The notes: generated by a model not told the origin, from the sequence alone. Counted from the first letter of the stretch, positions 6,210-19,839 are shown. The stretch is DNA of 26,786 bases from an uncultured Thermoplasmata archaeon (GCA_963768855.1 CAVYJM010000003.1:1-26786), one strand, 5' to 3'. Made by a program: numbers and translations.

Positions 6210-6491
6210 TCACTCCGCTTCTATAGCGTGGACGGAACTCATCTGGAGAAGGAGGTACGCGCGCGCGAGCTCGTCCTTGTCTTCGTCCGAGAGGCGAGGG
6301 TCTTCCATGTACTGCTCGTACAGGGGCTCGACGTCCCCGTGGGCGAGGCAGGTCACGGCCATGTTGAGAACATACTCCGTGAGGACCCGCTGGACGGCCT
6401 GTCGCACATCGACGACCGCCCCTGCCGGCGTGGTTGTGGAGCCGAGGAGCGACTTGATCGATTTCATCGGGGTCACGGCGTGGACATACAT
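6210..6491 (-). CDS. Small hypothetical protein with an acidic, probably helical C-terminal half (93 aa; alternative start at 6467)
   Basis: Fills the gap between the vWA and roadblock genes; composition is unlike the Arg/Pro-rich shadow ORFs. No family recognised. Confidence 0.55.
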   Translation of the reverse strand: MYVHAVTPMKSIKSLLGSTTTPAGAVVDVRQAVQRVLTEYVLNMAVTCLAHGDVEPLYEQYMEDPRLSDEDKDELARAYLLLQMSSVHAIEAE

Positions 6492-6607
6492 GGGAGTCCC
6501 TCGTACCTAACGGCTTGCGCCTGGTTATCATGCATGGTCATTCTGGCGCCCGGGTCGCCGACTCAGGGTCCCTTCCCCGGATAATTGCCGTCTGTGATAG
6601 TGAGGTC

Positions 6608-6630
6608 CATTCCCTTTTGAAGCGGGAATG
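6608..6630 (+). promoter_or_regulatory. TATA-like TTTTGAAG enclosed by inverted repeat CATTCCC/GGGAATG
   Basis: Arms at 6608-6614 and 6624-6630; about 30 nt upstream of the ATG at 6652. Confidence 0.5.
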
Positions 6631-6651
6631 CACCATCCTATCCGGAGTGCG

Positions 6652-7062
6652 ATGGATTCCCTCCGGATGGTCCCCGCCGACTTCTTCGCTGAGCTCGTGC
6701 CGAACGGCCGGATCGAGATGGCGATGCTCCTGAAGCGGAACGGCCGCATGCTCGCCGCGTGGGCGCGCTCGCCGGTGGCGTGGGAGGTCGTGTCCATCAT
6801 GGCGGCGACCACGCTCGGGTCCCTCGAGACGATGCTCGAGACGATCCACGCCCCCTCGCCGGAGGTGGTGGGGATCGTCGCGTGCGGCAACCGGATCCAC
6901 GTCCAGAAGGTCGACCCGCAGGGGATGCTCGTCCTCGTGGCGAAGGACGTCGTGACGGAGGCCTACCTCCGGGACACGGCGCGTCGAATCCTCGCGAAGC
7001 TCCCGCTGGCCACGAAGGACGACCCCCCGCGGCGGGTGACGTTGGGCCCGAATTTCCGCTGA
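6652..7062 (+). CDS. Roadblock/LC7 (MglB-like) domain protein (136 aa; alternative starts at 6628, 6667)
   Basis: Pattern MAMLLKRNGRMLAA, helix SIMAATTLGSLETML, three strands (VGIVACG, RIHVQKV, MLVLVA), then C-terminal helix EAYLRDTARRILAKL. This matches the roadblock fold layout. Confidence 0.8.
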   Translation: MDSLRMVPADFFAELVPNGRIEMAMLLKRNGRMLAAWARSPVAWEVVSIMAATTLGSLETMLETIHAPSPEVVGIVACGNRIHVQKVDPQGMLVLVAKDVVTEAYLRDTARRILAKLPLATKDDPPRRVTLGPNFR

Positions 7063-7157
7063 ATGCTGTGCTGAGTTGTCCTCCCGCTATACGGGCCGAC
7101 TACTTCTCGGCAATCCCATGACGATTTCCCTCATTCTAGCGCCCGATACCGAGGGAA

Positions 7158-7169
7158 GAACGCTTAAGC
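7158..7169 (+). promoter_or_regulatory. BRE-TATA element GAACGCTTAAGC
   Basis: Identical 12-mer lies upstream of the epimerase (16409-16420, minus strand). Confidence 0.6.
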
Positions 7170-7225
7170 CGGGCGCGATTTCATTAGTGGCTCCCCTCTT
7201 CAGTCCTGGGCGAGGGACGCGGGCG

Positions 7226-7780
7226 ATGGAGCACGAGAACCTCAAGACCAAGATCTGCCTCGTCGGCGACAACGGCGTCGGCAAGACGTCGCTGATCCGG
7301 CGATACGTCCTCGACATGTTCGAGGACAAGTACCTGACCACCCTGGGCACGAAGGTCTCCAAGAGAGAGATCGAGGTCTCGTTCCCCAAGGAGAACCTGG
7401 TCGCCAAGGTCGACATGCTCATCTGGGACATCATGGGCCAGCACGGGTTCCAGGAGCTGCTCAAGGAGGCGTACTTCTACGGCGCGCGCGGCATCCTCGC
7501 CGTGGTCGACGTCACGCGCCGATCGACGCTCGCAGGGCTCGACGACTGGATCGCGTGCGTCGAGGAGGTCGCGGGGCACCTGCCCACCCTCATCGCGGTG
7601 AACAAGACGGACCTCGCGGACAAGGCCGAGTTCGGCCTCCCGGAGATCACGGAGCGCTGCGACGCGCTCGGTTGCGGCTACTTCTGGACGAGCGCCAAGA
7701 CGGGCGAGAACGTGGAGCCGTCGTTCCAGCGCCTCGCCGCGATCGTCGCGGAGCAGCAGATCTGGGGCACCCAGTTCTGA
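7226..7780 (+). CDS. Rab/Ras-like small GTPase (184 aa)
   Basis: G1 GDNGVGKT, G2 TTLGT, G3 WDIMGQ, G4 NKTD, G5 SAK. RabF-like segments MLIWD, YFYGA, VVDVT. No C-terminal prenylation Cys. Confidence 0.93.
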   Translation: MEHENLKTKICLVGDNGVGKTSLIRRYVLDMFEDKYLTTLGTKVSKREIEVSFPKENLVAKVDMLIWDIMGQHGFQELLKEAYFYGARGILAVVDVTRRSTLAGLDDWIACVEEVAGHLPTLIAVNKTDLADKAEFGLPEITERCDALGCGYFWTSAKTGENVEPSFQRLAAIVAEQQIWGTQF

Positions 7781-7823
7781 CGCGCCGTCAATCCTAAGTG
7801 CGCGGACGCCCTCGCCGGATGCG

Positions 7824-8396
7824 ATGCGGACCACCGCTGTGGAATTGCGGAAGGTGCTGCTGCCGGAGGGCCTCGCCGAGGCCGAGCTCGCATCGAAGCC
7901 CTCGTCCGCCGTGATGGTCCTCCTGCGGCCTGCGGGCGACGGCCTCGAGGTCCTCCTCGGCCGCCGCATCCGGCGCTCCGGCGATCCGTGGTCCGGCCAG
8001 GTCTCCTTCCCCGGGGGCCACCACCACCGCGACGACGGATCCCTCCTCGAGACCGCCCTGCGGGAGACCCGGGAGGAGGTGAACCTAGACCTCCGCGGGA
8101 GCGCCGAGATCCTCGGACACCTTGCGCCCCGCTCTCCTGGCAACGTCCCTGAAATGCTCGTCGTCCCCTTCGTCGCCTTCGCACATGGTCCGCTCCGACC
8201 CCAGCCCGGGCCGGAGATGAAAGAGACGTTCTGGGCCCCCCTCGCCGAGCTTCCCGCCTCCTGGGGCCAGACGGTCGTGTCGACCCGGGTCGGGGAGCTC
8301 AAGGTGCCCGCGTTCCTGTGGAAGGACCGGATCGTGTGGGGGCTGACCTACCGCATCCTCGAGGAGCTCCTCGTCCTGGTCGGGATCAGCCGCTGA
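7824..8396 (+). CDS. Nudix hydrolase, CoA pyrophosphatase (PCD1/NudL-like) subfamily
   Basis: WSGQVSFPGG followed by the Nudix box GGHHHRDDGSLLETALRETREEV; C-terminal VWGLTYRIL. TATA-like CCTAAG at 7793-7798. Confidence 0.9.
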   Translation: MRTTAVELRKVLLPEGLAEAELASKPSSAVMVLLRPAGDGLEVLLGRRIRRSGDPWSGQVSFPGGHHHRDDGSLLETALRETREEVNLDLRGSAEILGHLAPRSPGNVPEMLVVPFVAFAHGPLRPQPGPEMKETFWAPLAELPASWGQTVVSTRVGELKVPAFLWKDRIVWGLTYRILEELLVLVGISR

Positions 8397-8417
8397 CGCC
8401 CGCTGCCGGAGGGCGCA

Positions 8418-8975
8418 CTACGCGGGCCCCTTCGGGCGACGCTCCGCGGGGTCGCGGATGCCGCCCCGCGAGTCCAGCTGCCGCAGGATGCGCTCGAACT
8501 CCTCGACCGGCACGGGCGCGTTCTCGATGTCGCCCGGCAGCCGAAGCTCGTTCGGTCGGGGTCCGGCGAGGCTCTTCTGCGCGGACTGGCGCGCCTCGTC
8601 GATCGCCTTGCGCAGCATGACCGCGGCGAGGATTTCCTTCTCCGTGGGTCGCGGGGTGAGCCCGGTCCGGGCGTGCCGCGCGACCGCGCCGGACGACGCC
8701 GGGTCCAGGGCGCGGCCGCATTCCTCGCAGACGACCACCTGCGGGCGGGCGCGCGGATAGTAGAGTCCCGCGACGACGAAGATCATGCGGAGGAAAAGAT
8801 AGAGAATGGCCGTGACCAGGAGGAATCCCTCCAGGTTCAGCGACCGTCCAGCGCTGCCCGGCGAGAGGTAGAGCGACCCGTGGATGAAGAAGAGGAAGGC
8901 GCCCACGGCCGCGACAGCTAGGACGGCGAACTCCCTCGCAGTGGTCCGGGCGAACTCGCTTTCGCGCAGCTCCAT
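8418..8975 (-). CDS. Hypothetical membrane protein, 2 TMs, CxxC motif, charged C-terminal tail (185 aa)
   Basis: Two hydrophobic segments, then VVCEECGR...H and an amphipathic EEFERILRQL. Confidence 0.7.
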   Translation of the reverse strand: MELRESEFARTTAREFAVLAVAAVGAFLFFIHGSLYLSPGSAGRSLNLEGFLLVTAILYLFLRMIFVVAGLYYPRARPQVVVCEECGRALDPASSGAVARHARTGLTPRPTEKEILAAVMLRKAIDEARQSAQKSLAGPRPNELRLPGDIENAPVPVEEFERILRQLDSRGGIRDPAERRPKGPA

Positions 8976-9051
8976 GCCTGATCACGTGGGACGGCATCGC
9001 CGCGCCTTGCGGCGAGGTCCCCTCCTCCGCGACTCCGAACCGCTCCTCCCC

Positions 9052-9129
9052 GGATAAATCCTCCTTCCCGCCGCTCCGGCTGGACGGAACCAGTATCAAA
9101 AACGAGAAGGAGGGGGTAGGGTATATCCG
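9052..9129. promoter_or_regulatory. Divergent promoter pair with mirror-image GAAGGAGG...TATCCGG elements
   Basis: Minus strand GAAGGAGG-ATTTATCC (9067-9052); plus strand GAAGGAGG (9106-9113) followed by GTATATCC (9121-9128). Confidence 0.5.
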
Positions 9130-9153
9130 GCCCCAGACAGGGTCGGTGTCCCA

Positions 9154-9900
9154 ATGGTCTCGGAACGAGTCTTTCGACCGCGCACGTTGTCGGCCATCTT
9201 CGGCGTGTACTTCCTCGTGATGGCGATCATCGCATGGTACAGCGGCGAGACCCTGGGCTATCACTACACGGTCGACATCACCCGCTTCACGTTCACGATC
9301 TACCTGGTCGCCGGCGCCGTGTTCCTCATCGGCGTCCTCCTCGCGGCAGTCCTCGGCGCACGCTCCCTCGACGCTCGCATCGAGAAGCTCGAGCGGACGG
9401 CGGAGCCCGATGGTGAGGTCGTCGAGGAGGTCGTCCTCGAAGAGGAGGCGACCGACGCCGTCCCTCCCCCGCTCGAGGAGACGGCGGGCCCGAGCGGCGA
9501 CCACGTGGATCGCGACATCGACGAGCTGCTCGTGAGCCTCCAGGAGATGGAGCAGGACGCCGGGACCTCGGACGCGGACGAGGAGGTCGTGACGCCGTCC
9601 CGCGAGGAGCTGCCGGCGTCGCGGGCAACCCGTTCGAGCCCCGTGGCCCCGTCCTCCGATTCCAGACGCCTCGCGATGCTGAGGAAGAAGCGCAACGGCC
9701 TCATCGGATACGTCGTGGGACCCGCGCTCGCCTCGATCGGAGCGATAGGCATCAGCGCGGCGATGCTGCCTGGCTCCGACGCGTTCCTCCAGACGTACTA
9801 CCAGCTCAACACCTCCCTCCTCCTCGGGCTGGGCTACAGCTTCGTCGGGGTGGCCGCCTACGTCGCGGCGTCCCTCCTGACGCTCCTCCGCTCGAAATAG
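9154..9900 (+). CDS. Hypothetical 4-TM membrane protein with a long acidic low-complexity loop (248 aa)
   Basis: 2 TMs, a ~110-aa Glu/Asp/Pro-rich loop, 2 TMs. TATA-like box about 30 nt upstream. Confidence 0.75.
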   Translation: MVSERVFRPRTLSAIFGVYFLVMAIIAWYSGETLGYHYTVDITRFTFTIYLVAGAVFLIGVLLAAVLGARSLDARIEKLERTAEPDGEVVEEVVLEEEATDAVPPPLEETAGPSGDHVDRDIDELLVSLQEMEQDAGTSDADEEVVTPSREELPASRATRSSPVAPSSDSRRLAMLRKKRNGLIGYVVGPALASIGAIGISAAMLPGSDAFLQTYYQLNTSLLLGLGYSFVGVAAYVAASLLTLLRSK

Positions 9901-9977
9901 GCGGATTGGAGCCCGTTTCTATGGAGGAAAGACCCAATATGGCGCCCCGTTATCGAGGTCAAGGCCTGCGCACGGTA

Positions 9978-9988
9978 CCTTTATATCC
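9978..9988 (+). promoter_or_regulatory. TATA box CCTTTATATCC
   Basis: Best match to the archaeal TTTATA consensus in the window. Its position favours the ATG at 10025 over 10001. Confidence 0.6.
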
Positions 9989-10024
9989 TCGGAGCGTCCA
10001 ATGCCCATTCTCAAGGGAAACGCC

Positions 10025-10258
10025 ATGATCACCACCGTCGTGACTGTTACATCGACCTTCCTCGCGGGCTCGTTCGGAGCCGCCGCGGTAGTGTCTCTGA
10101 TTCTCCTGTTGATCATGCGCGAGCTCTCCAGCGCACACGCGGAAGAGTCCGGGAACCTGAAGTCCAAGATCCTCTCCCACACGCTCCTGGTCCCGATCTC
10201 GCCGCTGCTCGTCGTCTTCGCCTTCATCGTCGCGGTGAAGGTGCTCGAAGTCCTCTGA
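10025..10258 (+). CDS. Small 2-helix membrane protein with a Thr-rich N-terminus (77 aa)
   Basis: MITTVVTVTSTF, TM1 (LAGSFGAAAVVSLILLLIM), charged loop starting RELS, TM2 (LLVPISPLLVVFAFIVAV). Confidence 0.75.
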   Translation: MITTVVTVTSTFLAGSFGAAAVVSLILLLIMRELSSAHAEESGNLKSKILSHTLLVPISPLLVVFAFIVAVKVLEVL

Positions 10259-10302
10259 AGGCCGAGCCCCGTTTCGGTCTGTCCATTCCTCGCGCGGGAG
10301 CC

Positions 10303-11172
10303 CTAGGGCCCGATGGGCGGAAGGACCGCCGCGAGCAGGAAGGGCGCGATGAGGTACAGGATCACGTTGCCGAGGGTGTGGCTCATGATTGCCCCCCAGA
10401 GGCTCTTCGTCTTCACGACGACGACGGCGTAGAGTAGGCCGACGAGGAAGACGAAGGTCAGGTCGAACGCGTTGCGGAAGAAGATGTGCATCGCGGAGAA
10501 CACGAGCGTGACGAACAGGACGCCGACCTTGTTCCCCAGGACCGCCATCGCGCGTCGCAGCATGATCCCACGGAAGATGAGCTCCTCTGCGAGCCCCGTC
10601 GCGAAGAAGATCACGGCGCCGCCGAACAGCACCTCCGTGATCGTCTCGCCCGTGATCCAGGCCTGTTCGCGCAGGATCGTGTACTCGACGAAGCCGAGCG
10701 GGATGCCCGTGAGCCCGATCAGGACCTGGACCCAGAGCTCCTTCCACGACCGGATTGCGAGGCCCAGGAGCCACGGGCTGAGTTGCTGGACGTAGGCCAC
10801 CGCCGCGGCGGCCGTCAGGAGCGGGATGCCAACGACCGCGAGCCAGGGCAGCGTGGCGGTCGGCGCCGTGCCCCAGAAGCGGGGCATGGACAGGGAGAAG
10901 ATCCGGATGAGCGGCGCGAGGCTCAGGGCCATCAGGAAAACGGAGAGCTCGACGTCCCGGTCCTGGATCGTCACGGCATGGAACAGGAGGGCAAACACCA
11001 GGAGGATGTGCAGGGTGAGCCCGTACTGCTGGAAGGGGAAGACCGTCGGATTCGACGGGTCCTGGATGGCGATCAGGGCCTCTGCGAGGATCAGGACGCT
11101 GAGGTAGATCGCCCCGATGGCCCACCGCGGGAGGCGGAAGGTCCGGGCGGCGTGGGCGGTTTCCGTCGCCAT
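10303..11172 (-). CDS. CPBP family (Abi/Rce1-like) glutamic intramembrane protease (289 aa)
   Basis: All three family motifs: AEELIFRG (EExxxR), FSAMH (FxxxH), HTLGN (HxxxN). Multi-TM; SD-like GAGGGGTG upstream. Confidence 0.92.
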   Translation of the reverse strand: MATETAHAARTFRLPRWAIGAIYLSVLILAEALIAIQDPSNPTVFPFQQYGLTLHILLVFALLFHAVTIQDRDVELSVFLMALSLAPLIRIFSLSMPRFWGTAPTATLPWLAVVGIPLLTAAAAVAYVQQLSPWLLGLAIRSWKELWVQVLIGLTGIPLGFVEYTILREQAWITGETITEVLFGGAVIFFATGLAEELIFRGIMLRRAMAVLGNKVGVLFVTLVFSAMHIFFRNAFDLTFVFLVGLLYAVVVVKTKSLWGAIMSHTLGNVILYLIAPFLLAAVLPPIGP

Positions 11173-11183
11173 CCCGCACCCCC

Positions 11184-12542
11184 TCACAGCTCGATCGGCG
11201 TCGGCTCGAGCGGTTCGAGCGGCTCCGTCTCGAACGACTTCCGCGCGACGAACCAGTAGTAGGGCGTCTGTGCGACAGTCGCGATGACGTAGGCGATCGA
11301 GAGACCGGTGATGCCGCTCGTCGTCAGGAGGCTGTAGCCGAGGCCCAGCATGACCGCGGAGGAGATTGCGGCTCCCACGATGAGCGGCAGGGTGCGGCGG
11401 CGCACGCGGACCCGCGTCGCGAGCAGGTTGTTGGCGACCGCAGGGATCGAGGCGAGTGTCAGGATCCGGAGAGGCTCCGTCGCCGCGTCGGCGTACGAGG
11501 TCGTCGCGCCCCCGAAGAGCTCGAGGACCAAGTGGGCGAAGATCCAGAACACGATGATCGCCGGTGTGAGGAGCGCCAGCGTCAGCAGGAGGGCGCGCCG
11601 CTCGTCCCGGTGGCGGTCCGCGCTCCGGTAGCTGGCCTCCGCGTAGAACGAGGTGAACGCGGCACCCGAGATGACCGTCAGCAGGCCGGCGACCGCGCTC
11701 GCCACGTAGAAGTACGCCGCGTTGTCCGGGCCCGCCGGACCCAGTGCGTTCAGGATGAGCAGGGGGAGGAGGGCGGTCCCCGCCCCCCCGACGATGCTGG
11801 CCGCATAATTGCCGTTGCTGAAGCGCATCATCGGACGCAGCCGGGCGAAGTGGGCGCGGAGGCGCGGGCGGTAGCCCTCCAGAATCCGCGGGAGGAGCCA
11901 GAGGCCCTCGAGGAGCACGCTCGCGGCCATCGCCGCCACGAGGGCGAGAAACACACCGAAGCGCCCGACGCCCAGGGAAACGCTGAGCGTCAGGGCGATG
12001 GCGACCGCGATCGGGATCTTCATGATGCCCAGGGCCACGGTCCGCCACATGGGGATGTCGGACCGGCGGAGCGCGACCGCCGCGTTGTCCAGGATGGGGC
12101 CGAGGGCGCACGCGAGGCATCCGATGACGATCAGGATGGGGTAGGCGGGGTTCTCCAGCACGAAGGAGAGGTCCAGCCCGACCAGGGCGATCACCAGGAG
12201 GAACCCGAGGCTCAGGAGGATGGATGCCGCGCCGACGAGGGTGAGGGAAGTGTTCACCAGGTCGTTCTTGTCCTCCGCCTCGGGGAGGTAGCGGATGATC
12301 GCGATGTTCTGCCCGAGCAGGCTGAGGGAGGCGACGAAGCTCACCGTCGAGAACAAGGCGACGGCGAACCCGATGTCGCTGCGCTGATAGACGCGTGTGA
12401 CGACGGCCCAGAAGAAGAACCCGAGGCCCTGCCCGACGACGCTGTTGGCCATGAGGAAGATCGCGTTGCGGTACAGGGACGTCTTCGCCTCGCCCCAGAG
12501 CCTTCCGATCGTTCGCTTCGTCCCGCCGAGGCTGTCTCCCAC
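11184..12542 (-). CDS. Wzx/RfbX-like oligosaccharide flippase (MOP superfamily), 452 aa
   Basis: About 12 TMs. N-terminus LYRNAIFLMANSVVGQGLGFFFW; LGQNIAIIRYLP; FSNGNY; FYVASAVAGLL patterns typical of polysaccharide-biosynthesis flippases. Confidence 0.85.
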   Translation of the reverse strand: MGDSLGGTKRTIGRLWGEAKTSLYRNAIFLMANSVVGQGLGFFFWAVVTRVYQRSDIGFAVALFSTVSFVASLSLLGQNIAIIRYLPEAEDKNDLVNTSLTLVGAASILLSLGFLLVIALVGLDLSFVLENPAYPILIVIGCLACALGPILDNAAVALRRSDIPMWRTVALGIMKIPIAVAIALTLSVSLGVGRFGVFLALVAAMAASVLLEGLWLLPRILEGYRPRLRAHFARLRPMMRFSNGNYAASIVGGAGTALLPLLILNALGPAGPDNAAYFYVASAVAGLLTVISGAAFTSFYAEASYRSADRHRDERRALLLTLALLTPAIIVFWIFAHLVLELFGGATTSYADAATEPLRILTLASIPAVANNLLATRVRVRRRTLPLIVGAAISSAVMLGLGYSLLTTSGITGLSIAYVIATVAQTPYYWFVARKSFETEPLEPLEPTPIEL

Positions 12543-12590
12543 ACGTCACGCGTCCTGGGGCCTGCTTCTGCGAAGAAAATTACCTCTGAG

Positions 12591-12603
12591 GGATAAAGCC
12601 TTC
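12591..12603 (-). promoter_or_regulatory. BRE-TATA element GAAGGCTTTATCC
   Basis: 12/13 identical to GAAGGCTTAATCC at 20397-20409. Confidence 0.55.
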
Positions 12604-12631
12604 GTCCTCCCTATCTTTCCGAAACCAGACG

Positions 12632-12647
12632 CCGCCCGGCCGGGCGG
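12632..12647. repeat. Perfect 16-bp palindrome CCGCCCGGCCGGGCGG; possible terminator
   Basis: Begins 4 nt after the stop of the minus-strand ATPase gene; same arms as 2413-2424. Confidence 0.5.
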
Positions 12648-12651
12648 ATCG

Positions 12652-13317
12652 TCACTTCTTCGGCTCGAGGCGGCCGTCCGCGAGGAGGTACTCCGAGGTC
12701 GCCATGGACCGCACCTCGCTATCGTGCGCGGCCACGACCACGGCAGCGCCGAAGCCGGTCCGCGCAAGGCGGAACGCCTCGAGGACCGCTGCCGTCCCCT
12801 TCGAGTCGAGGGAGGCGGTCGGCTCGTCCGCCAGGAGCACCTTGGGTCCGTTGGCAAGGGCGCGGGCGACAGCGACGCGCTGCGATTCCCCCACGGAGAC
12901 TTCCCCCGGTTTGCGCGATGCGAGTTTTGTCAACGCGAACGCCTCGAGGAGTTCGTCGACTCGCGACTCGGAGCGCCGCTTCGCGAGGCGCAGCGGGAGG
13001 GCGATGTTGTCTGCGATCGTCAGATCTTCGATGAGGTGATGGGTCTGGAAGACGAAACCGATTTCCAGGAGGCGCACCCGTGCGAGTGCGGTCTCCTTGA
13101 GCCCGGTGATCTCCCGGCCGCCGAGATCCACGCGCCCCCGCGTCGGCGCATCGAGCCCGCCGAGGATCGAGAGGAGCGTCGTCTTGCCACTCCCGTTCTC
13201 GCCCCATACGAGCACGGTCTGCCCCGGGTCGACGGTGATTTCGGCACCCCTCAGGACATCCGTGCGCCCGTCGAAGGACTTCCAGAGGTCGAGCGCGCGG
13301 AGCGCGGGTTCCGCCAT
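12652..13317 (-). CDS. LolD/MacB-type ABC ATP-binding protein, orphan at this position (221 aa; alternative start at 13329)
   Basis: Walker A GENGSGKT, Q-loop IGFVFQ, degenerate signature VSVGE followed by QRVAVARAL, Walker B LADEPT, H-loop AHD. Confidence 0.9.
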   Translation of the reverse strand: MAEPALRALDLWKSFDGRTDVLRGAEITVDPGQTVLVWGENGSGKTTLLSILGGLDAPTRGRVDLGGREITGLKETALARVRLLEIGFVFQTHHLIEDLTIADNIALPLRLAKRRSESRVDELLEAFALTKLASRKPGEVSVGESQRVAVARALANGPKVLLADEPTASLDSKGTAAVLEAFRLARTGFGAAVVVAAHDSEVRSMATSEYLLADGRLEPKK

Positions 13318-13340
13318 CGCACCGAGCATGCGACCCCTTC

Positions 13341-13425
13341 ATGAAAAACGTTCGCGCGCCGTTCGCGCGGGCGCGCGGCCGCGCCCGCGGGTGCATCGCG
13401 GCTTCCTCGTTGACGAAAGTTTCAA
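13341..13425. promoter_or_regulatory. Divergent promoter region with a direct repeat and a GC dyad
   Basis: GAACGTTTTTCAT (minus, 13353-13341), GAAAGTTTCAAG (plus, ~13414-13425), GTTCGCGCG twice (13350, 13361), stem CGCGGGCGCG/CGCGCCCGCG (13366-13389). Confidence 0.45.
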
Positions 13426-13468
13426 GTGGCGAACCCTGCATCGAGGCCGCGTCGGAAGGGATTGTGCA

Positions 13469-15376
13469 ATGCGCACTCAGCGAGCAACAGGCAAGGTAGC
13501 GATTGCGTTGGTTCTGGTCCTGGCGATGCTGGGCATCTCCCTGGTCGCCACCGCACCGGTGGCCCGGGCGGACCATGACACCATCGCGTGGAGTGGTCCA
13601 ACTACCGTCGCGTCGTCTGCGAACTTCGCTTACTCCAATTCATGGATTGTCGCGGACGGCCACGGCTCCATCTACGTGTTCTACGCGGCGACCAACACCT
13701 TGGCGTCGACAACCAACGTCAACGTCACGAAGTATGCTGCCGTCGGCCTGGGGGGCAATCCCCAGAAGCTGTTCGACAAGCAGGTGAACGATGTTTCGAA
13801 CGTCGTCACCAGCAATTACCCGATCTCCGCAGTGATCGACTCGAGCGGGAACCTGTATGTGGCGTGGACCCGCAACCCGGTCTCCGGGAACAACCAGGTG
13901 TACGTCAGCAAATCTGCGAACGGCGGGGTGACCTGGCAGGCGGCCAAGGAAGCCAGCTCCTCGACCAGCGGCACCAGCAACTTCTGGGGGAACATCGTGG
14001 CCGCGCCGGACGGGACCGTCTACGTCTCCTGGCTCTCGGAGTCGGGCAGCGCGGAGGCCGTAACCGTGGCCAAGAGCACGGACGGTGGATCGACGTTCTC
14101 CGCCGGGACCAACGCGACCACCGCTCTCTCCGTCGGTATCAACTCGATTGCCGTCGACTCCGCAGGACGGGTGTATGTGGCCGACAGCTTCACTCCTTCG
14201 GGCTCTTCGACTTCCGTCGTGGATGTAACGTGGTCGGACAACGGCGTGACATGGTCCCCGCACCAGAAGGTCTCGAACCCGACGTCGTCCACGCTCTTCC
14301 CGGCGCTCTTCGTAGACTCCGGGGGTCTAGTCCATCTGGCCTGGTACAACGTGGTGCCGAGCGGCTATGCAATTGACTATGTTCAGAGCCGGGACCGCGG
14401 GGCCACCTGGTCCGAACCCCTGGCGATCACGCCGGGCTTCACCGGCGGTTACATTGGATACATGGCGGGCGAAGGCGACACCTTGATGTTCGTCCGGGGC
14501 GACTTTGACGTGACGGGCTTCGGTTTCACCTTGAGCGCGGACCACGGAGTCACCTGGTACCCAGACGCGACCCTGAACACCGGGGCCACGAGCCTGTCCG
14601 CGGTCGCCGCTGACCAGAACGGAACCTTCTGGGCCACGTCTCTGGACGCGAGCGCCCACCTGACCCTCCGGCCCTGGTACGGACCTCCGTCCCGGCCCGT
14701 GATCGACAGCGTAGTCGCGAGCGGCTCGAACGGCCTCACGATCACCTGGACGCCCTCGCCGGAGCAGAACGTAGTGGACTACCGGATCTGGCGCAGCGCG
14801 GATGGCACGAACTACCAGGCCGTCGGCCTGGTCGGCGGGAGCGTCACGAGCTTCACGGACTCCGGCCTCGCGAACGGCACGTACTACTACATCGTGACGG
14901 CCATCAACATCTATGGAACCCCGAGCCACGCTTCCACGGGAGCCAGCGGGACCGTCGGAACGACGACCGCGCAGCTAATCGCGGACCTGCAGAGCCAGAT
15001 CAACGCCCTCGAGAACGAGCTCTCCCAGGCCAACGCGAGCACCGCGGCCGCGATTGCGGCGGCCCAGGCTCAGATCACGTCCCTGCAGAATCAGCTGACG
15101 AGCCTGCAGAACTCCCAGACCTCGGCCAACGCGGCGACTGCGGCGCAGCTGGCCCAGCTCCAGGCGAATCTCACGAGGCTGCAGGACCAGCTGAACACCC
15201 TCCAGGGACAGCAGGCGACGCAGACGATCTCCTATGCGAACCTGGCGTTCGAGATCATCGTGGTCGTCCTGCTCGTCGTGCTCCTCCTGAACCAGATGCG
15301 CAAGCCGAAGAGCCCGCAGATGATGATGGCGCAACCAGGTCACGCGGAGCCGAAGAAGCCGGAAGACGACCTCTAG
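13469..15376 (+). CDS. Membrane-anchored surface protein: signal peptide, Asp-box (BNR) beta-propeller, FN3, coiled coil, C-terminal TM (635 aa)
   Basis: Signal peptide ending VARA. Asp-boxes SANGGVTW, STDGGSTF, SDNGVTW, SRDRGATW, SADHGVTW. FN3 pattern ITWTPS...YRIWR...FTDSGL...YYYIVTA. Ala/Gln/Leu heptads, then TM AFEIIVVVLLVVLLL and MRKPK. Confidence 0.88.
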   Translation: MRTQRATGKVAIALVLVLAMLGISLVATAPVARADHDTIAWSGPTTVASSANFAYSNSWIVADGHGSIYVFYAATNTLASTTNVNVTKYAAVGLGGNPQKLFDKQVNDVSNVVTSNYPISAVIDSSGNLYVAWTRNPVSGNNQVYVSKSANGGVTWQAAKEASSSTSGTSNFWGNIVAAPDGTVYVSWLSESGSAEAVTVAKSTDGGSTFSAGTNATTALSVGINSIAVDSAGRVYVADSFTPSGSSTSVVDVTWSDNGVTWSPHQKVSNPTSSTLFPALFVDSGGLVHLAWYNVVPSGYAIDYVQSRDRGATWSEPLAITPGFTGGYIGYMAGEGDTLMFVRGDFDVTGFGFTLSADHGVTWYPDATLNTGATSLSAVAADQNGTFWATSLDASAHLTLRPWYGPPSRPVIDSVVASGSNGLTITWTPSPEQNVVDYRIWRSADGTNYQAVGLVGGSVTSFTDSGLANGTYYYIVTAINIYGTPSHASTGASGTVGTTTAQLIADLQSQINALENELSQANASTAAAIAAAQAQITSLQNQLTSLQNSQTSANAATAAQLAQLQANLTRLQDQLNTLQGQQATQTISYANLAFEIIVVVLLVVLLLNQMRKPKSPQMMMAQPGHAEPKKPEDDL

Positions 15377-15386
15377 GCGCAAGAAC

Positions 15387-15424
15387 GGAGGGCCGAGGAG
15401 GCCCTCCTCTTTCCCAATTTTCCG
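15387..15424 (+). terminator. Hairpin plus pyrimidine tract between convergent genes
   Basis: GGAGGGCC-gagga-GGCCCTCC (15387-15407) followed by TCTTTCCCAATTTT. Confidence 0.55.
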
Positions 15425-15436
15425 AGTCCCGCTGGC

Positions 15437-16381
15437 CTACGGCTTCGAGACCAGACCTTTGTGATAGGCGAGGGTGCGCTCGATTCCCTCGCGCAGCGAC
15501 GTCCGGGGGACGAAAGTGAGTCCGGCCATCGCTTTCGAGATGTCGGCCCGCGAGTGACGCACGTCCCCGGGGCGGAGCTCCTTGCGCGTCGCCTTCACGG
15601 GGCTCGCGGTGACCTCGGAGAGCAGGCGCGCCACCTCCGCGACCGTCGTCGCGGACCCGGACCCGATGTTGAAGACCTGGCCGGCGACGGGGCGCTCGCC
15701 TGCGAGCTCCATCGCCTCTGCGGCATCTGCGGCATAGAGGAAGTCCCGGGTCTGGTCACCGTCCCCGTAGATCTCGACGCCCTTGCCCGCGGCCACCGCG
15801 GAGCAGAACTTCGCTACGACGCCGGCGTAGGGCGCGTTCGGGTCCTGCCGCGGACCGTAGCTGTTGAACAGCCGCAGGACCACGGTCTCGATCGACTTGA
15901 GCTGGGAGATCTCCTCGCATGCGAACTCCCCGACCATCTTCGTCGTCGCGTACGGGGAGGCGGGCTCGGGCCGCATCGTCTCGACCTTCGGCACGACCTC
16001 GGACGAGCCGTACACCGCGGCGCTCGAGATGAAGACGACGCGCTTCACCCCGGCGTCCACGGACGTCTTCAGCACGTTGAGGGTGCCCTCGACGTTCGTC
16101 CGCCAGTACTCCTCCGGCTTCTCCGTGCTCTCCGGGACCGAAGTCTTCGCAGCGAGGTGGTACACGAGGTCGCGGCCCTCGAGGGCCTTCGCGAGCTGCT
16201 TCGGCTGAAGGATCGAGGCGCGATGGAGGCGAACCTCCTCTTTCGCGGCCTCGAGGTTCCTCAGGGAGCCTGTGGACAGGTCGTCGAAGACGGTGACCTC
16301 GTTGTGCAGGCTCAACCGCTCCACGAGGTGCGACCCGATGAACCCCGCGCCCCCCGTGACGAGGACCTTCTTGTCCTGCAT
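15437..16381 (-). CDS. NAD-dependent nucleotide-sugar epimerase/dehydratase (GalE-like extended SDR), 314 aa
   Basis: GGAGFIG, HLAA, SSAAVYG, YATTK (YxxxK), RLFNSYGPRQ, RDFLY, RPGDVRHS. Confidence 0.95.
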   Translation of the reverse strand: MQDKKVLVTGGAGFIGSHLVERLSLHNEVTVFDDLSTGSLRNLEAAKEEVRLHRASILQPKQLAKALEGRDLVYHLAAKTSVPESTEKPEEYWRTNVEGTLNVLKTSVDAGVKRVVFISSAAVYGSSEVVPKVETMRPEPASPYATTKMVGEFACEEISQLKSIETVVLRLFNSYGPRQDPNAPYAGVVAKFCSAVAAGKGVEIYGDGDQTRDFLYAADAAEAMELAGERPVAGQVFNIGSGSATTVAEVARLLSEVTASPVKATRKELRPGDVRHSRADISKAMAGLTFVPRTSLREGIERTLAYHKGLVSKP

Positions 16382-16408
16382 GGGCCCGCGACGGACGGGA
16401 GCGGACGC

Positions 16409-16420
16409 GCTTAAGCGTTC
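16409..16420 (-). promoter_or_regulatory. BRE-TATA element GAACGCTTAAGC, overlapping the TAA stop of the DinB gene
   Basis: 28 nt upstream of the epimerase ATG; identical to 7158-7169. Confidence 0.65.
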
Positions 16421-16968
16421 CGGTGACGCGACGTTCGAGAACTGGCGGGCCCTCCCTTCCGGGCGAGGTCCTCGAGCGCCCAGTTCGTCGACAGCCACGT
16501 CATCTCCGGCGGCCGCAGGTCATCCTGCCAGAGCATCGCGATGATCTCCCCCGTGTGGTGGGCCTGCTCCAACGTCACCTGCATGAGGGCGTCCGCCACG
16601 GTGCACGCCTTGGGCTGCCATTCCGCCCTCACGATCCTGCCGAGCTCGCGGTCCGTCAGCCCCTTCATGTACGCATCGATCTTCGTCCAAGTCTTCTCCA
16701 GCGACTCGCGGACCTCCTCCATCGACTCGAGGGACGACCAGGTCCGACGCATCATGGTGGGATCGGCGAGGTCCCCCTGGACGACGTAGTTCAGCCAGGC
16801 GTCGTACACGCGGAGGATGTGGTTGAACGTGCCCGCGATCGAGTGCCATCCGGCCTCCCGCTCCCGGGACACGACCTTCCACGGGAGCCGTTCGAGCTTC
16901 TTGCAGTAGACCTCGAGGACGCGCCGGTTGTAGGCCAGGATCCGGCGGTAGTCATCGGCGGTGACCAT
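16411..16968 (-). CDS. DinB/YfiT-superfamily protein (185 aa)
   Basis: YNRRV...SIAGTFNHIL...W, and EQAHHTGEI in the place of the usual HxxHHxGQ. Confidence 0.85.
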   Translation of the reverse strand: MVTADDYRRILAYNRRVLEVYCKKLERLPWKVVSREREAGWHSIAGTFNHILRVYDAWLNYVVQGDLADPTMMRRTWSSLESMEEVRESLEKTWTKIDAYMKGLTDRELGRIVRAEWQPKACTVADALMQVTLEQAHHTGEIIAMLWQDDLRPPEMTWLSTNWALEDLARKGGPASSRTSRHRNA

Positions 16969-17083
16969 GCGGACAGCATTCCGCCGGCGGCCTTCAGCTT
17001 GCCGCCTTCGTGTCGCGGCTCCGCGAGGACGCCATCCGAGCGGTGCGGCAGGGGTACTTCTTCGCCCCGGTGAGATTCTTCCC

Positions 17084-17101
17084 GGGGGCTTTAAGTCCCC
17101 C
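17084..17101 (+). promoter_or_regulatory. TATA-like CTTTAAG flanked by G5/C5 arms
   Basis: GGGGG-CTTTAAGT-CCCCC; about 28 nt upstream of the ATG at 17123. Confidence 0.5.
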
Positions 17102-17122
17102 AAGGTCGAGCGCCCTCCTGCC

Positions 17123-18109
17123 ATGGCGTCCTCGCCCCCGCCCTCGAACCGCCGCCTCATCCTGTACTTCGTCCTCCTCGCGGCGCTCCTCCCGGAGGCG
17201 ATCACGGGATCCACCCCGCCGCAGGGCTGGCTCAACCCGATCCAGGCCCTGCTGAACGTCTGGCTGTACGGCACGGGCGTCCTGGTGGTCCGCGAGGTCT
17301 CCCTGCGCTGGAAGGCGGGCTGGCCCGGGATTCTGCTCCTCGGCATGGCCTACGGGATCGTCGAGGAGGGCCTCGCCGTCACCACGTTCTTCAACCCGAC
17401 CCTCCCCCAGCTCGGGACGCTCGGATGGTACGGCCGCGACCTCGGCGTGAACTGGCTCTGGGCGGTGTGGCTCACCACGTTCCACGCGATCGTCTCCATC
17501 GCGATTCCCATCTTCCTGATCGAGTGGCACTGGCCCGCCCTGAAGGGGAAGGCGATCCTCTCGCACCGTGGCCTCTATGCCACGATCGCCCTGCTCGGCC
17601 TCGCGGCCCTCACGATCAACGCCCTCGTGCACGCCGCGAATCCGTACCAGGAAGCCGGGCCCGAGTATGTGGCGGCCTTCGTCGCCATCGCGCTGCTGGC
17701 CTACGCGGCGAAACGCTGGGCGGCGGCGTGGTGGAACCGCGTCCCCGTGACCGGCCCCGCCTACACCGTTCGGGCCTGCTTCGTCGTCGGCTTCGCCTTC
17801 ATCGGCGCGTCGTTCCTGGTCTACGCCGGCGGCCCGGCCCTCGGGGGTCTCCCCGGGATCTCCCTCGCCGAGGGGCTGCTCGTCGCCTTCCTCGCGCTCC
17901 TCGTGATGCGCCGGGTCGTGGGCCGGCCCGGTTCCGAGGTCCGGGTCTTCGCCTTCGCAGCCGGCGTGATCGGTTTCTTTTGCGTCTTCGATCTCATCCT
18001 CGTGCCGGGCAATCCGCTCATGGTCATCCCACCCGTCGCCTTCGGCTACTTGCTCGTGCGCCTGTGGCGGGAGCGCCCAATTTCGCTCGCCGCGGCCGCG
18101 CATGCCTAG
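17123..18109 (+). CDS. Hypothetical polytopic membrane protein with intramembrane Glu/His motifs (328 aa)
   Basis: About 9 hydrophobic segments; LPE, VRE, YGIVEEGL, FHA. Confidence 0.75.
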   Translation: MASSPPPSNRRLILYFVLLAALLPEAITGSTPPQGWLNPIQALLNVWLYGTGVLVVREVSLRWKAGWPGILLLGMAYGIVEEGLAVTTFFNPTLPQLGTLGWYGRDLGVNWLWAVWLTTFHAIVSIAIPIFLIEWHWPALKGKAILSHRGLYATIALLGLAALTINALVHAANPYQEAGPEYVAAFVAIALLAYAAKRWAAAWWNRVPVTGPAYTVRACFVVGFAFIGASFLVYAGGPALGGLPGISLAEGLLVAFLALLVMRRVVGRPGSEVRVFAFAAGVIGFFCVFDLILVPGNPLMVIPPVAFGYLLVRLWRERPISLAAAAHA

Positions 18110-18249
18110 GGACCCGCCGGTCCCCGCTCCGACGAGGCTCGACGGAAGGGAGTCGTTTTCCTTTCGGCCACCCTAAACGCGATAATTCACGCAAACGATA
18201 CTGCGGCAGAAACGGCTAAATCAGGGTGCTTCAACTCGTCCTTCCATTC

Positions 18250-19839
18250 ATGGTCGAGCCCGCGGACTGGTACTCCCTGATCTCGGTCTCCACCTCGGCC
18301 GTCGCCCTGGGCCTCGCCGCCTACGTCCTCAAGAAGATCCCCAACCGCCGCGCGGGCGACACGTTCGTCCTCGCCATGACCTTCTTCCTCCTCGCCGCCG
18401 TCTCCGCGTACCTCCTCCGGATCTCCGATCCCTGGGGCGAGGACACGTCCCTCGTCCTGGCCCACATGTTCTACTTCTTCCACATGCTCGCGGTCGGGTT
18501 CACGGCCGCGTTCGTCGGCTCGTACTTCTACGGCTTCAAGGTCATGGGTCGGCGGGCCGTGGTCCTGTTCCTCCAGATCTCGCTCTTCGCGTCCGCATTC
18601 GTGGTCTCGACCCTCGTGACGGCGGTGGAATCCTATCCGGGATACGGCGTCGTGGTTGACAGCGCGAACGCGACCCTGGCCCTCGCCGTACTGGCCACGG
18701 CCTTCATGAGCACGGCCCTGGGCGTCCTCGCCCGCACGCTCTACGTGAACAAGGATCCGATCGTCCGGAAACAGGCGCTCGTCATGACCCTCGGCATCCT
18801 GGCCCACGGCGCTGGGGCGGAGTCGTATGCGTACCTGAGGATCGGGCTCGACTCGTATCCGCCACCGTTCCTCACGATCACCGCGCTCGCGATGGCCGCC
18901 ACGTTCGGCCTTGCGGTCCTCCGGTACAAGATGTTCGTCGTTACGCCGCGCAAGGAAGCATCCCTGGATCTTCCCGTGAAGTTCCCGATCCGGGCCGGGC
19001 ACGCCTACGTCGTCGAGGAGGCGGCTCCCGAGCTTCTCCTGCGAGCCTTCGACGAGGCCGTCCACCGCGGCGAGAGCGGCCTCCTCGTGACCCGACGCAA
19101 CCCCACCGCGGTCCGCGAGGACACGGGATTGGCCGAGACGCCCGTCCTCTGGCTCACGGACACGCCGGGACTGAACCGCGTCGCCCCGGGAAACCCGGCG
19201 ATGCTCGAGCGGCTCGTCGAGTCGTTCGTGGAGAAGGCTCCCTCGGCGGTCGTCGGGCTCGACGGCTTCGAGTCTCTCGCGCGCGAGGCCGGCACCGAGC
19301 GCGCGATCCAGTGCGTGCAGCGGATGAAGGACCAGATCCTGTCCGCAGGGGGCGCGTTCCTCGTGAGCGTGGCGGGAATGGCGCTCGGCGCGGAGAGCAT
19401 CTCGTTCTTCGAGCGAGAGTTCGAGCGTCTCCCCGTGCCGGAGCCCGCCGCCGCGACGATCGAGGATCTGTTCGTCATCGAGGCGAACACGGGCATCCTC
19501 CTGGCACGGAGGGCCCGGCCGACGAGCGAGGAGCTCGACGCGGACCTCATGGCCGGCATGCTTACTGCGATCATGGACTTCGCGAAGGCCTCCTTCGCCC
19601 GGGGCAACGACCAATTGCGGGATCTCACCCTCGGGGAACGGAAGGTGGCCCTCGAGCGCGGATCGCGGATGATCGTGGCCGCGGTCTTCCATGGGCGCGA
19701 CCCGCCCGATGTGCACTCGGAGATGCGGGCCTTCGTGATTCGAGCGGAGACGGCCTATGGCCCCACGCTCGCGAAGTGGAGCGGCGACATGACGGAGATG
19801 CGCGGCCTCGAGGTCATGGCGGGGCGGCTGTTCCTCTAG
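18250..19839 (+). CDS. 7TM sensor (HisKA_7TM-like), DUF835 and longin/roadblock-like fusion protein (529 aa; alternative GTG start at 18226)
   Basis: 7 hydrophobic helices ending VLRYKMF. DUF835 pattern LLVTRRNP...VLWLT...VVGLDGFESL (~18980-19425). C-terminal IEDLFVI...G.LL...DADLMAGMLTAIMDF...ERG...KWSGD (~19455-19836). Confidence 0.82.
   Translation: MVEPADWYSLISVSTSAVALGLAAYVLKKIPNRRAGDTFVLAMTFFLLAAVSAYLLRISDPWGEDTSLVLAHMFYFFHMLAVGFTAAFVGSYFYGFKVMGRRAVVLFLQISLFASAFVVSTLVTAVESYPGYGVVVDSANATLALAVLATAFMSTALGVLARTLYVNKDPIVRKQALVMTLGILAHGAGAESYAYLRIGLDSYPPPFLTITALAMAATFGLAVLRYKMFVVTPRKEASLDLPVKFPIRAGHAYVVEEAAPELLLRAFDEAVHRGESGLLVTRRNPTAVREDTGLAETPVLWLTDTPGLNRVAPGNPAMLERLVESFVEKAPSAVVGLDGFESLAREAGTERAIQCVQRMKDQILSAGGAFLVSVAGMALGAESISFFEREFERLPVPEPAAATIEDLFVIEANTGILLARRARPTSEELDADLMAGMLTAIMDFAKASFARGNDQLRDLTLGERKVALERGSRMIVAAVFHGRDPPDVHSEMRAFVIRAETAYGPTLAKWSGDMTEMRGLEVMAGRLFL

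Follow-up and report, generated by a model that had tools for sequence, protein, structure and literature searches.

Two probably separate pieces of an expanded small-GTPase toolkit in an uncultured Thermoplasmata archaeon, and a longin-like domain family linked to Rab-like GTPases

The stretch of 26,786 nucleotides (nt) from an uncultured Thermoplasmata archaeon that was analysed here at its full length (the window; GCA_963768855.1 CAVYJM010000003.1:1-26786) carries a gene for a Rab-like small GTPase, a gene for a roadblock-like protein directly upstream of it and, 10 kb farther downstream, a gene for a seven-transmembrane (7TM) receptor that ends in a longin-like domain. An earlier note on this DNA had named these three components, had stated that histidine kinases and response regulators are missing from the window, and had joined the three genes into a single signalling circuit. 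All three components were confirmed, and Pfam scans of the window genes detected neither a histidine kinase nor a receiver domain in any of them. The single circuit did not withstand the analysis, as the 7TM gene and the roadblock-GTPase pair have been gained and lost independently of each other, the components have many paralogues and the promoter box invoked as a shared signal is generic. With moderate confidence, we favour the reading that the window contains no dedicated circuit but two separate parts of a small-GTPase toolkit that is expanded throughout the lineage. At the level of whole families, comparative sequence evidence supports a tie between the longin-like domain and Ras/Rab-like GTPases. 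The features on which the argument turns are the following.

6652..7062, plus strand: gene for a divergent roadblock/LC7/MglB-like protein of 136 amino acids (aa), assigned from homologue matches to PF03259 and a profile comparison with Thermus MglB
7226..7780, plus strand: gene for a Rab-like (Ras-family) small GTPase of 184 aa, assigned from PF00071 and motifs G1-G5
18250..19839, plus strand: gene for the 7TM receptor of 529 aa, assigned from an AlphaFold2 (AF2) model and Pfam
18250..18927, plus strand: seven-helix membrane domain (HisKA_7TM type) of the receptor, assigned from the AF2 helices and PF16927 matches of orthologues
19003..19419, plus strand: DUF835 domain of the receptor, an inactive KaiC-like alpha/beta domain without a Walker A motif, assigned from a PF05763 match
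19453..19836, plus strand: C-terminal longin-like domain of the receptor ('A1' family, referred to below as the tail), assigned from an AF2 model and Foldseek

The host genome (G000) is an archaeal metagenome-assembled genome of 2.87 Mb in 24 contigs with a GC content of about 67%, 94% complete and 7.7% contaminated, and the window is its contig C3. Genes were mapped by a codon-position-aware gene call combined with Pfam scans.

The 7TM gene and the roadblock-GTPase pair have been gained and lost independently within one syntenic block. In three close relatives (G009, G013 and G014), synteny with the window extends from the vWA gene as far as the epimerase gene, the roadblock proteins are 68-80% and the GTPases 87-93% identical to those of the window, and the NUDIX gene is present. 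In G013, a genome of 98% completeness, an FtsX permease gene comes immediately after the AF_0692-like gene with no 7TM gene in the slot, and none was found elsewhere in this genome at E<=1e-50. The reverse situation prevails in G012 and in at least six members of the same genus (G006, G007, G010, G011, G015 and G017), where the 7TM gene (52-55% identical) is kept beside the epimerase and DinB genes and no roadblock orthologue was detected, the best matches being only 29-38% identical and located on other contigs. On contig C166 of G012, the syntenic row is preserved up to the NUDIX gene and the roadblock-GTPase pair is missing; the same is true for the 1-Mb contig of P0039. Taken over the order, the 7TM gene occurs in 24 of 79 genomes. 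In the window itself, ten unrelated genes on both strands separate the GTPase region from the 7TM gene.

Proximity within 13 kb is no evidence of wiring in a genome with so many paralogues. The genome-wide paralogue count, which the earlier note had put forward as a check, yielded 19 Ras-family (Rab-like) GTPases, 16 genes with a tail (17 copies of the longin-like domain altogether) and about eight roadblock-like genes, in addition to 13 DUF835 domains. Two of the GTPase genes (G000:C20:7393-7827 and G000:C24:13073-13507) are near-identical and have the same four upstream neighbours; they probably reflect a strain duplication in the bin with its 7.7% contamination, and the true number of GTPases may be 18. 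Tandem arrays of Rab-like GTPase genes were also seen, three at G000:C7:106426-108257 and two at G000:C12:41724-42918, the latter pair with a gene for a stand-alone longin-like protein (C12:45265-45768) 2.3 kb downstream. The tail itself comes in many architectures: three proteins consist of it alone, six combine an ectodomain and a single membrane passage with the tail, several of these six carrying DUF11/CLIPPER repeats, four are proteins with 4-7 transmembrane (TM) helices, one is the 7TM-DUF835 protein of the window, one is a giant protein with two copies and one is a receiver domain (REC) fusion. It is always cytoplasmic-terminal and either follows closely on the last TM helix or forms the C-terminus, in one case after the receiver domain. 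In this last protein (G000:C11:363470-364306), the receiver domain (PF00072, 2.4e-28) is fused to the longin-like domain, a connection between two-component signalling and the module; within 12 kb of it (C11:370912-375527) lie genes for two tail-bearing multi-pass membrane proteins and a double-DUF835 protein.

The earlier note had also pointed to a box shared between the promoters of the GTPase and epimerase genes, and two exact copies are indeed present.

7158..7169, plus strand: promoter-like box GAACGCTTAAGC, 57 nt before the GTPase start codon
16409..16420, minus strand: second copy of the box GAACGCTTAAGC, 28-39 nt before the epimerase start codon

This 12-mer occurs exactly twice in the window, compared with 0.02 occurrences expected by chance. 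The identity of the two copies thus stands, but the box is no private signal of these genes: it is an instance of a genome-wide upstream consensus, AAC[CG][CT]TTAAG, which is enriched 11-17 fold at positions -50 to -30 of many genes. Throughout the genome, the most enriched upstream 7-mers are AACCTTT, ACGCTTA, CCTTAAG, GCTTAAG and CTTTAAG with a peak 30-50 nt before start codons, and the box is therefore an ordinary B recognition element (BRE)/TATA-like consensus; CTTAAG is found upstream of about 90 genes. All that the box shows is, probably, that the window GTPase has a promoter of its own. As an observation in its own right, the general promoter consensus of G000 can be given as approximately AAC[CG][CT]TTAAG with the variants CTTTAA and CTTATA, and it is useful for annotating starts in this lineage.

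Turning to the components themselves, the window GTPase is, as judged from its sequence, a full Ras-superfamily switch. It matches the Ras model PF00071 with an E-value of 2.8e-30 (105.5 bits; cut-off 21.6), and its motifs (G1 GDNGVGKT, G2 T, G3 DIMGQ, G4 NKTD and G5 SAK) are invariant across 32 homologues. It is termed Rab-like here solely by its best matches among solved structures, Rab1A/B (3e-24) and a Thorarchaeota Rab. Its C-terminus (...QQIWGTQF) is devoid of cysteine and thus has none of the prenylatable CC, CXC or CAAX endings of eukaryotic Rab proteins; it therefore cannot be prenylated in the way these are. The G3 motif DIMGQ retains the catalytic glutamine that is absent from Group 1 Rup GTPases, and it also differs from the TxPGQ of the MglA family, despite the adjoining roadblock gene.

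The 136-aa protein encoded upstream, whose gene ends 163 nt before the GTPase start, appears from its homologues to be a very divergent roadblock/MglB relative. Its own match to Robl_LC7 (PF03259) is below threshold (E 0.027, 14.6 bits; cut-off 23), 25 of 26 homologues match this model at E<=0.1 (best 3.2e-6), the family profile aligns with Thermus MglB over nearly the full length at E 0.05, and homologues are annotated by the Joint Genome Institute (JGI) as Roadblock/LC7/MglB. The roadblock gene lies directly upstream of the GTPase gene in all relatives checked (including G009, G013, G014 and L041-L043), down to 47-50% identity, and L033-L035 as well as L041-L043 show the same succession of roadblock, GTPase and NUDIX genes. 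Two flanking genes belong to this row.

6210..6491, minus strand: gene for a small protein of 93 aa, divergently oriented to the roadblock gene, position kept in G009 and G014
7824..8396, plus strand: gene for a NUDIX hydrolase, 44 nt 3' of the GTPase gene, assigned from PF00293 at 8.6e-15

The NUDIX hydrolase, as a constant partner of the GTPase, might act on guanine nucleotides. The 93-aa protein has no Pfam match; its counterparts at the same position in G009 and G014 are 66-73% identical. It is homologous (47% over 51 aa, E 1e-14) to the product of a 127-aa gene that lies between a second GTPase gene and the roadblock gene in distant relatives, and in L041-L043 this second GTPase gene is located beyond the small divergent gene. 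Window positions 6210-8396 and L041:2939-5727 can thus be described as a conserved unit of a small helical protein on the divergent strand, roadblock protein, Rab-like GTPase and NUDIX hydrolase. That the roadblock family and the tail family are one and the same by sequence is not claimed, their hhalign comparison being weak (E 0.0035, probability 9%).

The receptor was modelled over its full 529 aa with a predicted local distance difference test score (pLDDT) of 86.7 and seven TM helices (aa 4-29, 33-57, 64-94, 102-121, 139-166, 170-199 and 207-225); the model also has a beta-hairpin at aa 126-136 in the loop between TM4 and TM5. The window protein itself does not match PF16927 at E<=0.01, many of its orthologues carry PF16927 (HisKA_7TM), some of them with weak or faint matches, and the best structural matches of the bundle in Foldseek are class A G protein-coupled receptors (GPCRs), with a TM-score of up to 0.56 on the target. 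The DUF835 domain is recognized by PF05763 at 2.9e-18 (66.4 bits; cut-off 33.1), the match covering aa 272-399 of a 537-aa frame starting with the GTG at 18226, or approximately aa 264-391 of the 529-aa protein. A P-loop of the Walker A type, GxxGxGK[ST], is not present in the receptor sequence. For DUF835 plus tail, Foldseek ranked Rag/Gtr chains (G domain plus roadblock) high; a Rag-like identity was rejected, the TM-scores reaching only 0.13-0.15 and stemming mostly from the roadblock part. The fusion of 7TM bundle, DUF835 and tail is conserved in all orthologues checked, and the tail is conserved as strongly as the rest of the protein.

The tail is predicted to adopt a longin/roadblock-like fold. 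When its approximately 130 aa were modelled alone, AF2 returned a pLDDT of 85.3 and a predicted template modelling score (pTM) of 0.80, with elements in the order strand-strand-helix-strand-strand-strand-helix-helix (E9-16, E22-27, H36-55, E63-66, E69-75, E79-86, H93-113 and H119-133). In a Foldseek search against the PDB, all 50 of the 50 best matches are longin or roadblock proteins, among them LAMTOR proteins, Rag C-terminal domains, AP sigma, Mon1-Ccz1, Sec22b, Ykt6 and MglB, and the Sec22b longin domain reaches TM-scores of 0.63-0.68. Model and matches bear out what had been suspected of this C-terminal domain from the sequence. At the level of sequence profiles the resemblance is faint: no Pfam longin or roadblock model matches receptor aa 400-529, no Pfam model covers the domain family, one tail paralogue has a weak Robl_LC7 match (E 0.0015), and the tail profile finds MON1 and MglB among PDB sequences at E 0.3-0.7 only. 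An Atlas feature search retrieved only Thermoplasmatota clusters and, at 0.85, a single Asgard roadblock/longin cluster, to be taken as no more than a lead. The family is large: a search of 1.84 billion proteins at E<=1e-3 returned 6376 cluster representatives.

How this domain family is distributed relative to small GTPases was assessed in one even draw of 121 Thermoplasmatota genomes, with thresholds of E<=1e-8 for the domain and E<=1e-18 for Ras. Each of the two is present in 23 of the 121 genomes; 22 genomes have both, one has only the domain, one has only Ras and 97 have neither. The domain-only genome yields two weak domain matches and the Ras-only genome contains a single Ras. Fisher's test yields p = 7e-22 under an independence of genomes that does not hold here. 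Among the carriers about 12 families are represented, and the class to which the window belongs itself contains several families with neither. The phylogenetic profiling proposed in the earlier note thus had a divided outcome: the domain family and the GTPases co-occur in 22 of 23 carriers, and the three window genes do not travel together. Gene neighbourhoods point in the same direction as the co-occurrence. From the listed coordinates in this sample, at least ten domain matches have a Ras match no more than 1.5 kb away (G040:C60, G062:C122, G119:C2, G126:C22, G124:C180, G124:C73, G080:C2, G066:C134, G098:C282 and G116:C268), compared with 2.0 expected, an approximately five-fold excess; when four genomes of one family are collapsed, seven adjacent pairs are left (Poisson p 0.005). 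The host genome contributes adjacent pairs of its own at C6:748236/749251 and C6:703413/702465.

The same domain also occurs in bacteria. In P0093, whose short contig shows no neighbouring genes, it precedes an OmpA domain (hhalign 99.2%), and in the Caldilineaceae locus L096 (tblastn 43% identity, E 9e-28) four genes encode, in this order, a coiled-coil protein, a protein with the longin-like domain and a TM helix, a Ras-family GTPase and a histidine kinase, the G3 motif of the GTPase being DLAGS, without glutamine. This order is the Group 1 Rup neighbourhood of Wuichet and Sogaard-Andersen, in which the domain is an unnamed conserved domain without assigned function (PMC4316618).

If the 7TM receptor has a cognate GTPase at all, gene order points to a protein other than the window GTPase. 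The most divergent 7TM orthologues (45-49% identity), which stem from another family of the order, are encoded in a co-directional cluster, L126. It comprises (L126:1329-11575) genes for four longin-tailed proteins (995, 300, 184 and 716 aa), for two tandem GTPases of 273-275 aa and for the 7TM-DUF835-tail protein, the last starting 66 nt after the tandem GTPases, and it is followed by an ELP3-like radical SAM gene on the opposite strand. The same order recurs in G023:C2 (L137:1-5685), where two reading frames together make up the 7TM gene. The tandem GTPases of L126 carry a helical C-terminal extension of about 100 aa. The long GTPases of L126 and G023 are orthologues of G000:C6:749251-750072 (48% identity over 98%), which in the host genome lies between the gene for a 312-aa tail protein and the same ELP3-like gene. 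This arrangement therefore directs attention to the 273-aa long paralogue instead of the window's 184-aa GTPase. The long GTPase is present in 43 of 43 genomes of its family, and its phyletic profile is uninformative. We regard the long paralogue as a lead to the receptor's GTPase, not as a result.

On this basis, a mechanism can be sketched. The roadblock protein, as a dimer, would probably bind the adjacent GTPase and regulate its nucleotide state or its location, by analogy with MglB/MglA and Ragulator. The longin-like tails would dock or regulate soluble, lipid-free Rab-like GTPases at the membrane, for which Mon1-Ccz1, TRAPP, DENN, SRX-SRbeta and the Rup operon provide analogies. In the receptor, the 7TM bundle would sense a signal, and bundle and inactive KaiC domain together would pass it on to the tail and thereby change the docking or regulation of a GTPase. 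Extended to the lineage, this leads to a tentative proposal, to which we give somewhat limited credence: soil and wetland Thermoplasmata may use diverse receptors with a built-in longin-like module for GTPase docking or guanine nucleotide exchange (as a guanine nucleotide exchange factor, GEF) that acts on Rab-like GTPases, among them the GPCR-like 7TM protein with its inactive KaiC relay domain, single-pass glycoproteins and a two-component receiver protein. Together with bacterial Rup, such a network would parallel the longin-based regulators of eukaryotic Rab proteins, might be related to them, and would lie outside the Asgard archaea.

Several observations weigh against a coupling of this kind. 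Most of the 19 GTPases of the host genome have neither a roadblock nor a longin-like neighbour. No GTPase is encoded near 14 of the 15 loci with 7TM orthologues, and both GTPase-adjacent cases (L126 and G023:C2) fall into one family-level lineage, so that the adjacency is compatible with chance. The co-occurrence may in part reflect shared ancestry of genomes that are not independent. Eighty loci of the DUF11 giant-surface-protein subfamily hold four GTPases in 750 kb, which is no enrichment; these loci were retrieved with a 7-row sub-alignment of the domain and are biased to the DUF11-type subfamily. As to the roadblock protein, the Pfam match of the window protein is sub-threshold and its fold is derived from homology only.

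Some of these points would also suit the alternative that the longin-like tail is unconnected to GTPases and serves as a dimerisation, cargo-sorting or small-ligand module, the co-occurrence being lineage history. Longin domains in SNAREs have roles unrelated to GTPases, longin and roadblock folds more generally also serve in non-GTPase capacities, and the tail's best structural matches include Sec22b and Ykt6. Most tail genes lack a GTPase neighbour, and the co-occurrence counts are not phylogenetically independent. We nevertheless consider this alternative unlikely, because the near-perfect 22/1/1/97 pattern extends over about 12 families and also includes absences inside the same class, adjacent genes are about five times as frequent as expected, and the longin-like domain resides in a conserved Rup GTPase operon of a bacterium, that is, in another domain of life (PMC4316618).

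A second alternative starts from the middle domain of the receptor. DUF835 has been labelled iKaiC (inactive KaiC) by Galperin et al. and is an output domain of archaeal receiver proteins (PMC5847659). With 13 DUF835 domains in the genome and the fusion conserved, the receptor could signal through DUF835 to KaiC-like ATPases, in the manner proposed for archaeal KaiC hubs, with the longin-like domain as an accessory. This is quite improbable in our estimation, as no KaiC-like gene lies beside the 7TM gene in the neighbourhoods read and the tail matches the other parts of the receptor in conservation; signalling from DUF835 to KaiC would, moreover, be compatible with coupling to a GTPase. Finally, that the window GTPase uses the tail of the window receptor as a GEF-like platform and has the roadblock protein as its GTPase-activating protein (GAP), together controlling the envelope and adhesin genes of the region, is very improbable: all three parts do lie within 13 kb among envelope genes, the tail fold and the family-level link to GTPases are real and roadblock and GTPase form a conserved pair, but the window GTPase is one of 19 and the window tail one of 17 copies with ten unrelated genes between them, G013 has the pair without the 7TM gene, G012 and the contig of P0039 have the 7TM gene and NUDIX without the pair, the shared box is generic, and the GTPases beside the 7TM orthologue belong to another paralogue group.

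The preferred reading, two separate pieces of an expanded toolkit, is built from parts of known kinds: a Ras-superfamily GTPase, a roadblock protein, a Rup-type neighbourhood, DUF835 and HisKA_7TM. The closest parallel is Group 1 Rup (PMC4316618), with which the archaeal proteins share a membrane protein bearing the same longin-like domain (L096, P0093) and GTPases closely similar in G1, G2 and G4. In contrast to that system, the host GTPases retain glutamine in G3, receptors of many types, 7TM-DUF835 among them, carry the domain as a fusion, the window has no adjoining coiled-coil partner, histidine kinase or GGDEF, and receptor and GTPase do not form one operon. With MglA/MglB of Myxococcus and Thermus, the window shares a roadblock-family gene directly beside a small GTPase gene and a profile that aligns with Thermus MglB; it differs in the Rab/Ras-like DIMGQ, where MglA has TxPGQ and an intrinsic arginine, and in its very divergent roadblock protein. 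The Streptomyces conservon operon encodes the histidine kinase CvnA, the roadblock protein CvnB, the DUF742 protein CvnC and the GTPase CvnD. This system (CvnA-D) and the mycobacterial Mfp resemble the window in the logic of a membrane sensor, a roadblock protein and a small GTPase as a G-protein-like module. Unlike in the conservon, the window has no histidine-kinase sensor, Pfam scans of the window found no DUF742, the GTPase is not an MglA of group 2, and the genes are not arranged in one operon.

Among eukaryotic systems, Mon1-Ccz1, TRAPP, DENN, Ragulator-Rag and SRalpha SRX-SRbeta share with the tail the fold and the idea of a longin/roadblock (hetero)dimer that docks a Rab, Arf or Rag GTPase at a membrane, the partner here being Rab-like. 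In contrast to these platforms, no sequence-level family membership was found for the tail, and the domain is here covalently attached to membrane receptors. The receptor likewise has the PF16927-type seven-helix bundle in common with HisKA_7TM sensors, and class A GPCRs are its best structural matches; its output is DUF835 plus the longin-like domain, however, not a histidine kinase, the likeness to GPCRs is one of fold (TM-score at most 0.56), and, unlike eukaryotic GPCRs, it comes without a heterotrimeric G protein.

Possession of small GTPases with longin/roadblock regulators counts as a hallmark of eukaryotes and Asgard archaea. The lineage described here, an archaeal one outside Asgard, possesses 19 Rab-like GTPases in a 2.9-Mb genome together with a large, unannotated family of receptor-attached longin-like domains (more than 6000 clusters). 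If the tails do bind GTPases, this would offer a function for the uncharacterised bacterial Rup systems, would show how a lipid-free prokaryotic Rab-like switch reaches the membrane, and would add to the candidates from which eukaryotic Rab regulation may have descended. In the literature searched, we found no description of a longin fold for the Rup-associated domain, no account of a longin-like domain expanded as a receptor tail in Thermoplasmata and no description of the 7TM-iKaiC-longin architecture. The present analysis contributes the phylum-wide co-occurrence, the direct match to a bacterial Rup operon and the negative result for the proposed window circuit.

The related sequencing runs are all from wetland. 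Three wetland metatranscriptomes contain next to no words matching the window, and no RNA run covering it was found. The gene content of the window, as assigned by the gene call and Pfam scans, reads in order as follows.

Start of the window: ABC-2 transporter, GT2 glycan synthase and vWA pilin-like protein
Next: small 93-aa gene (minus strand), roadblock-like gene (plus), Ras-family GTPase (plus), NUDIX (plus) and four small or unknown genes
Then: Rce1-like protease, flippase, ABC ATPase, BNR surface protein, epimerase, DinB and AF_0692-like gene
End of the window: 7TM protein (plus), YdjM, FtsX permeases and NosD/PKD surface protein

The Rce1-like gene of the CAAX-protease family (CPBP; 10303-11172, minus strand) is 2.5 kb away from the gene for a Rab-like GTPase lacking a CAAX box. 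The pairing of the CPBP gene and the Rab-like GTPase gene is kept in the relatives L041-L043, and the two are probably unrelated, the CPBP gene belonging with the flippase operon.

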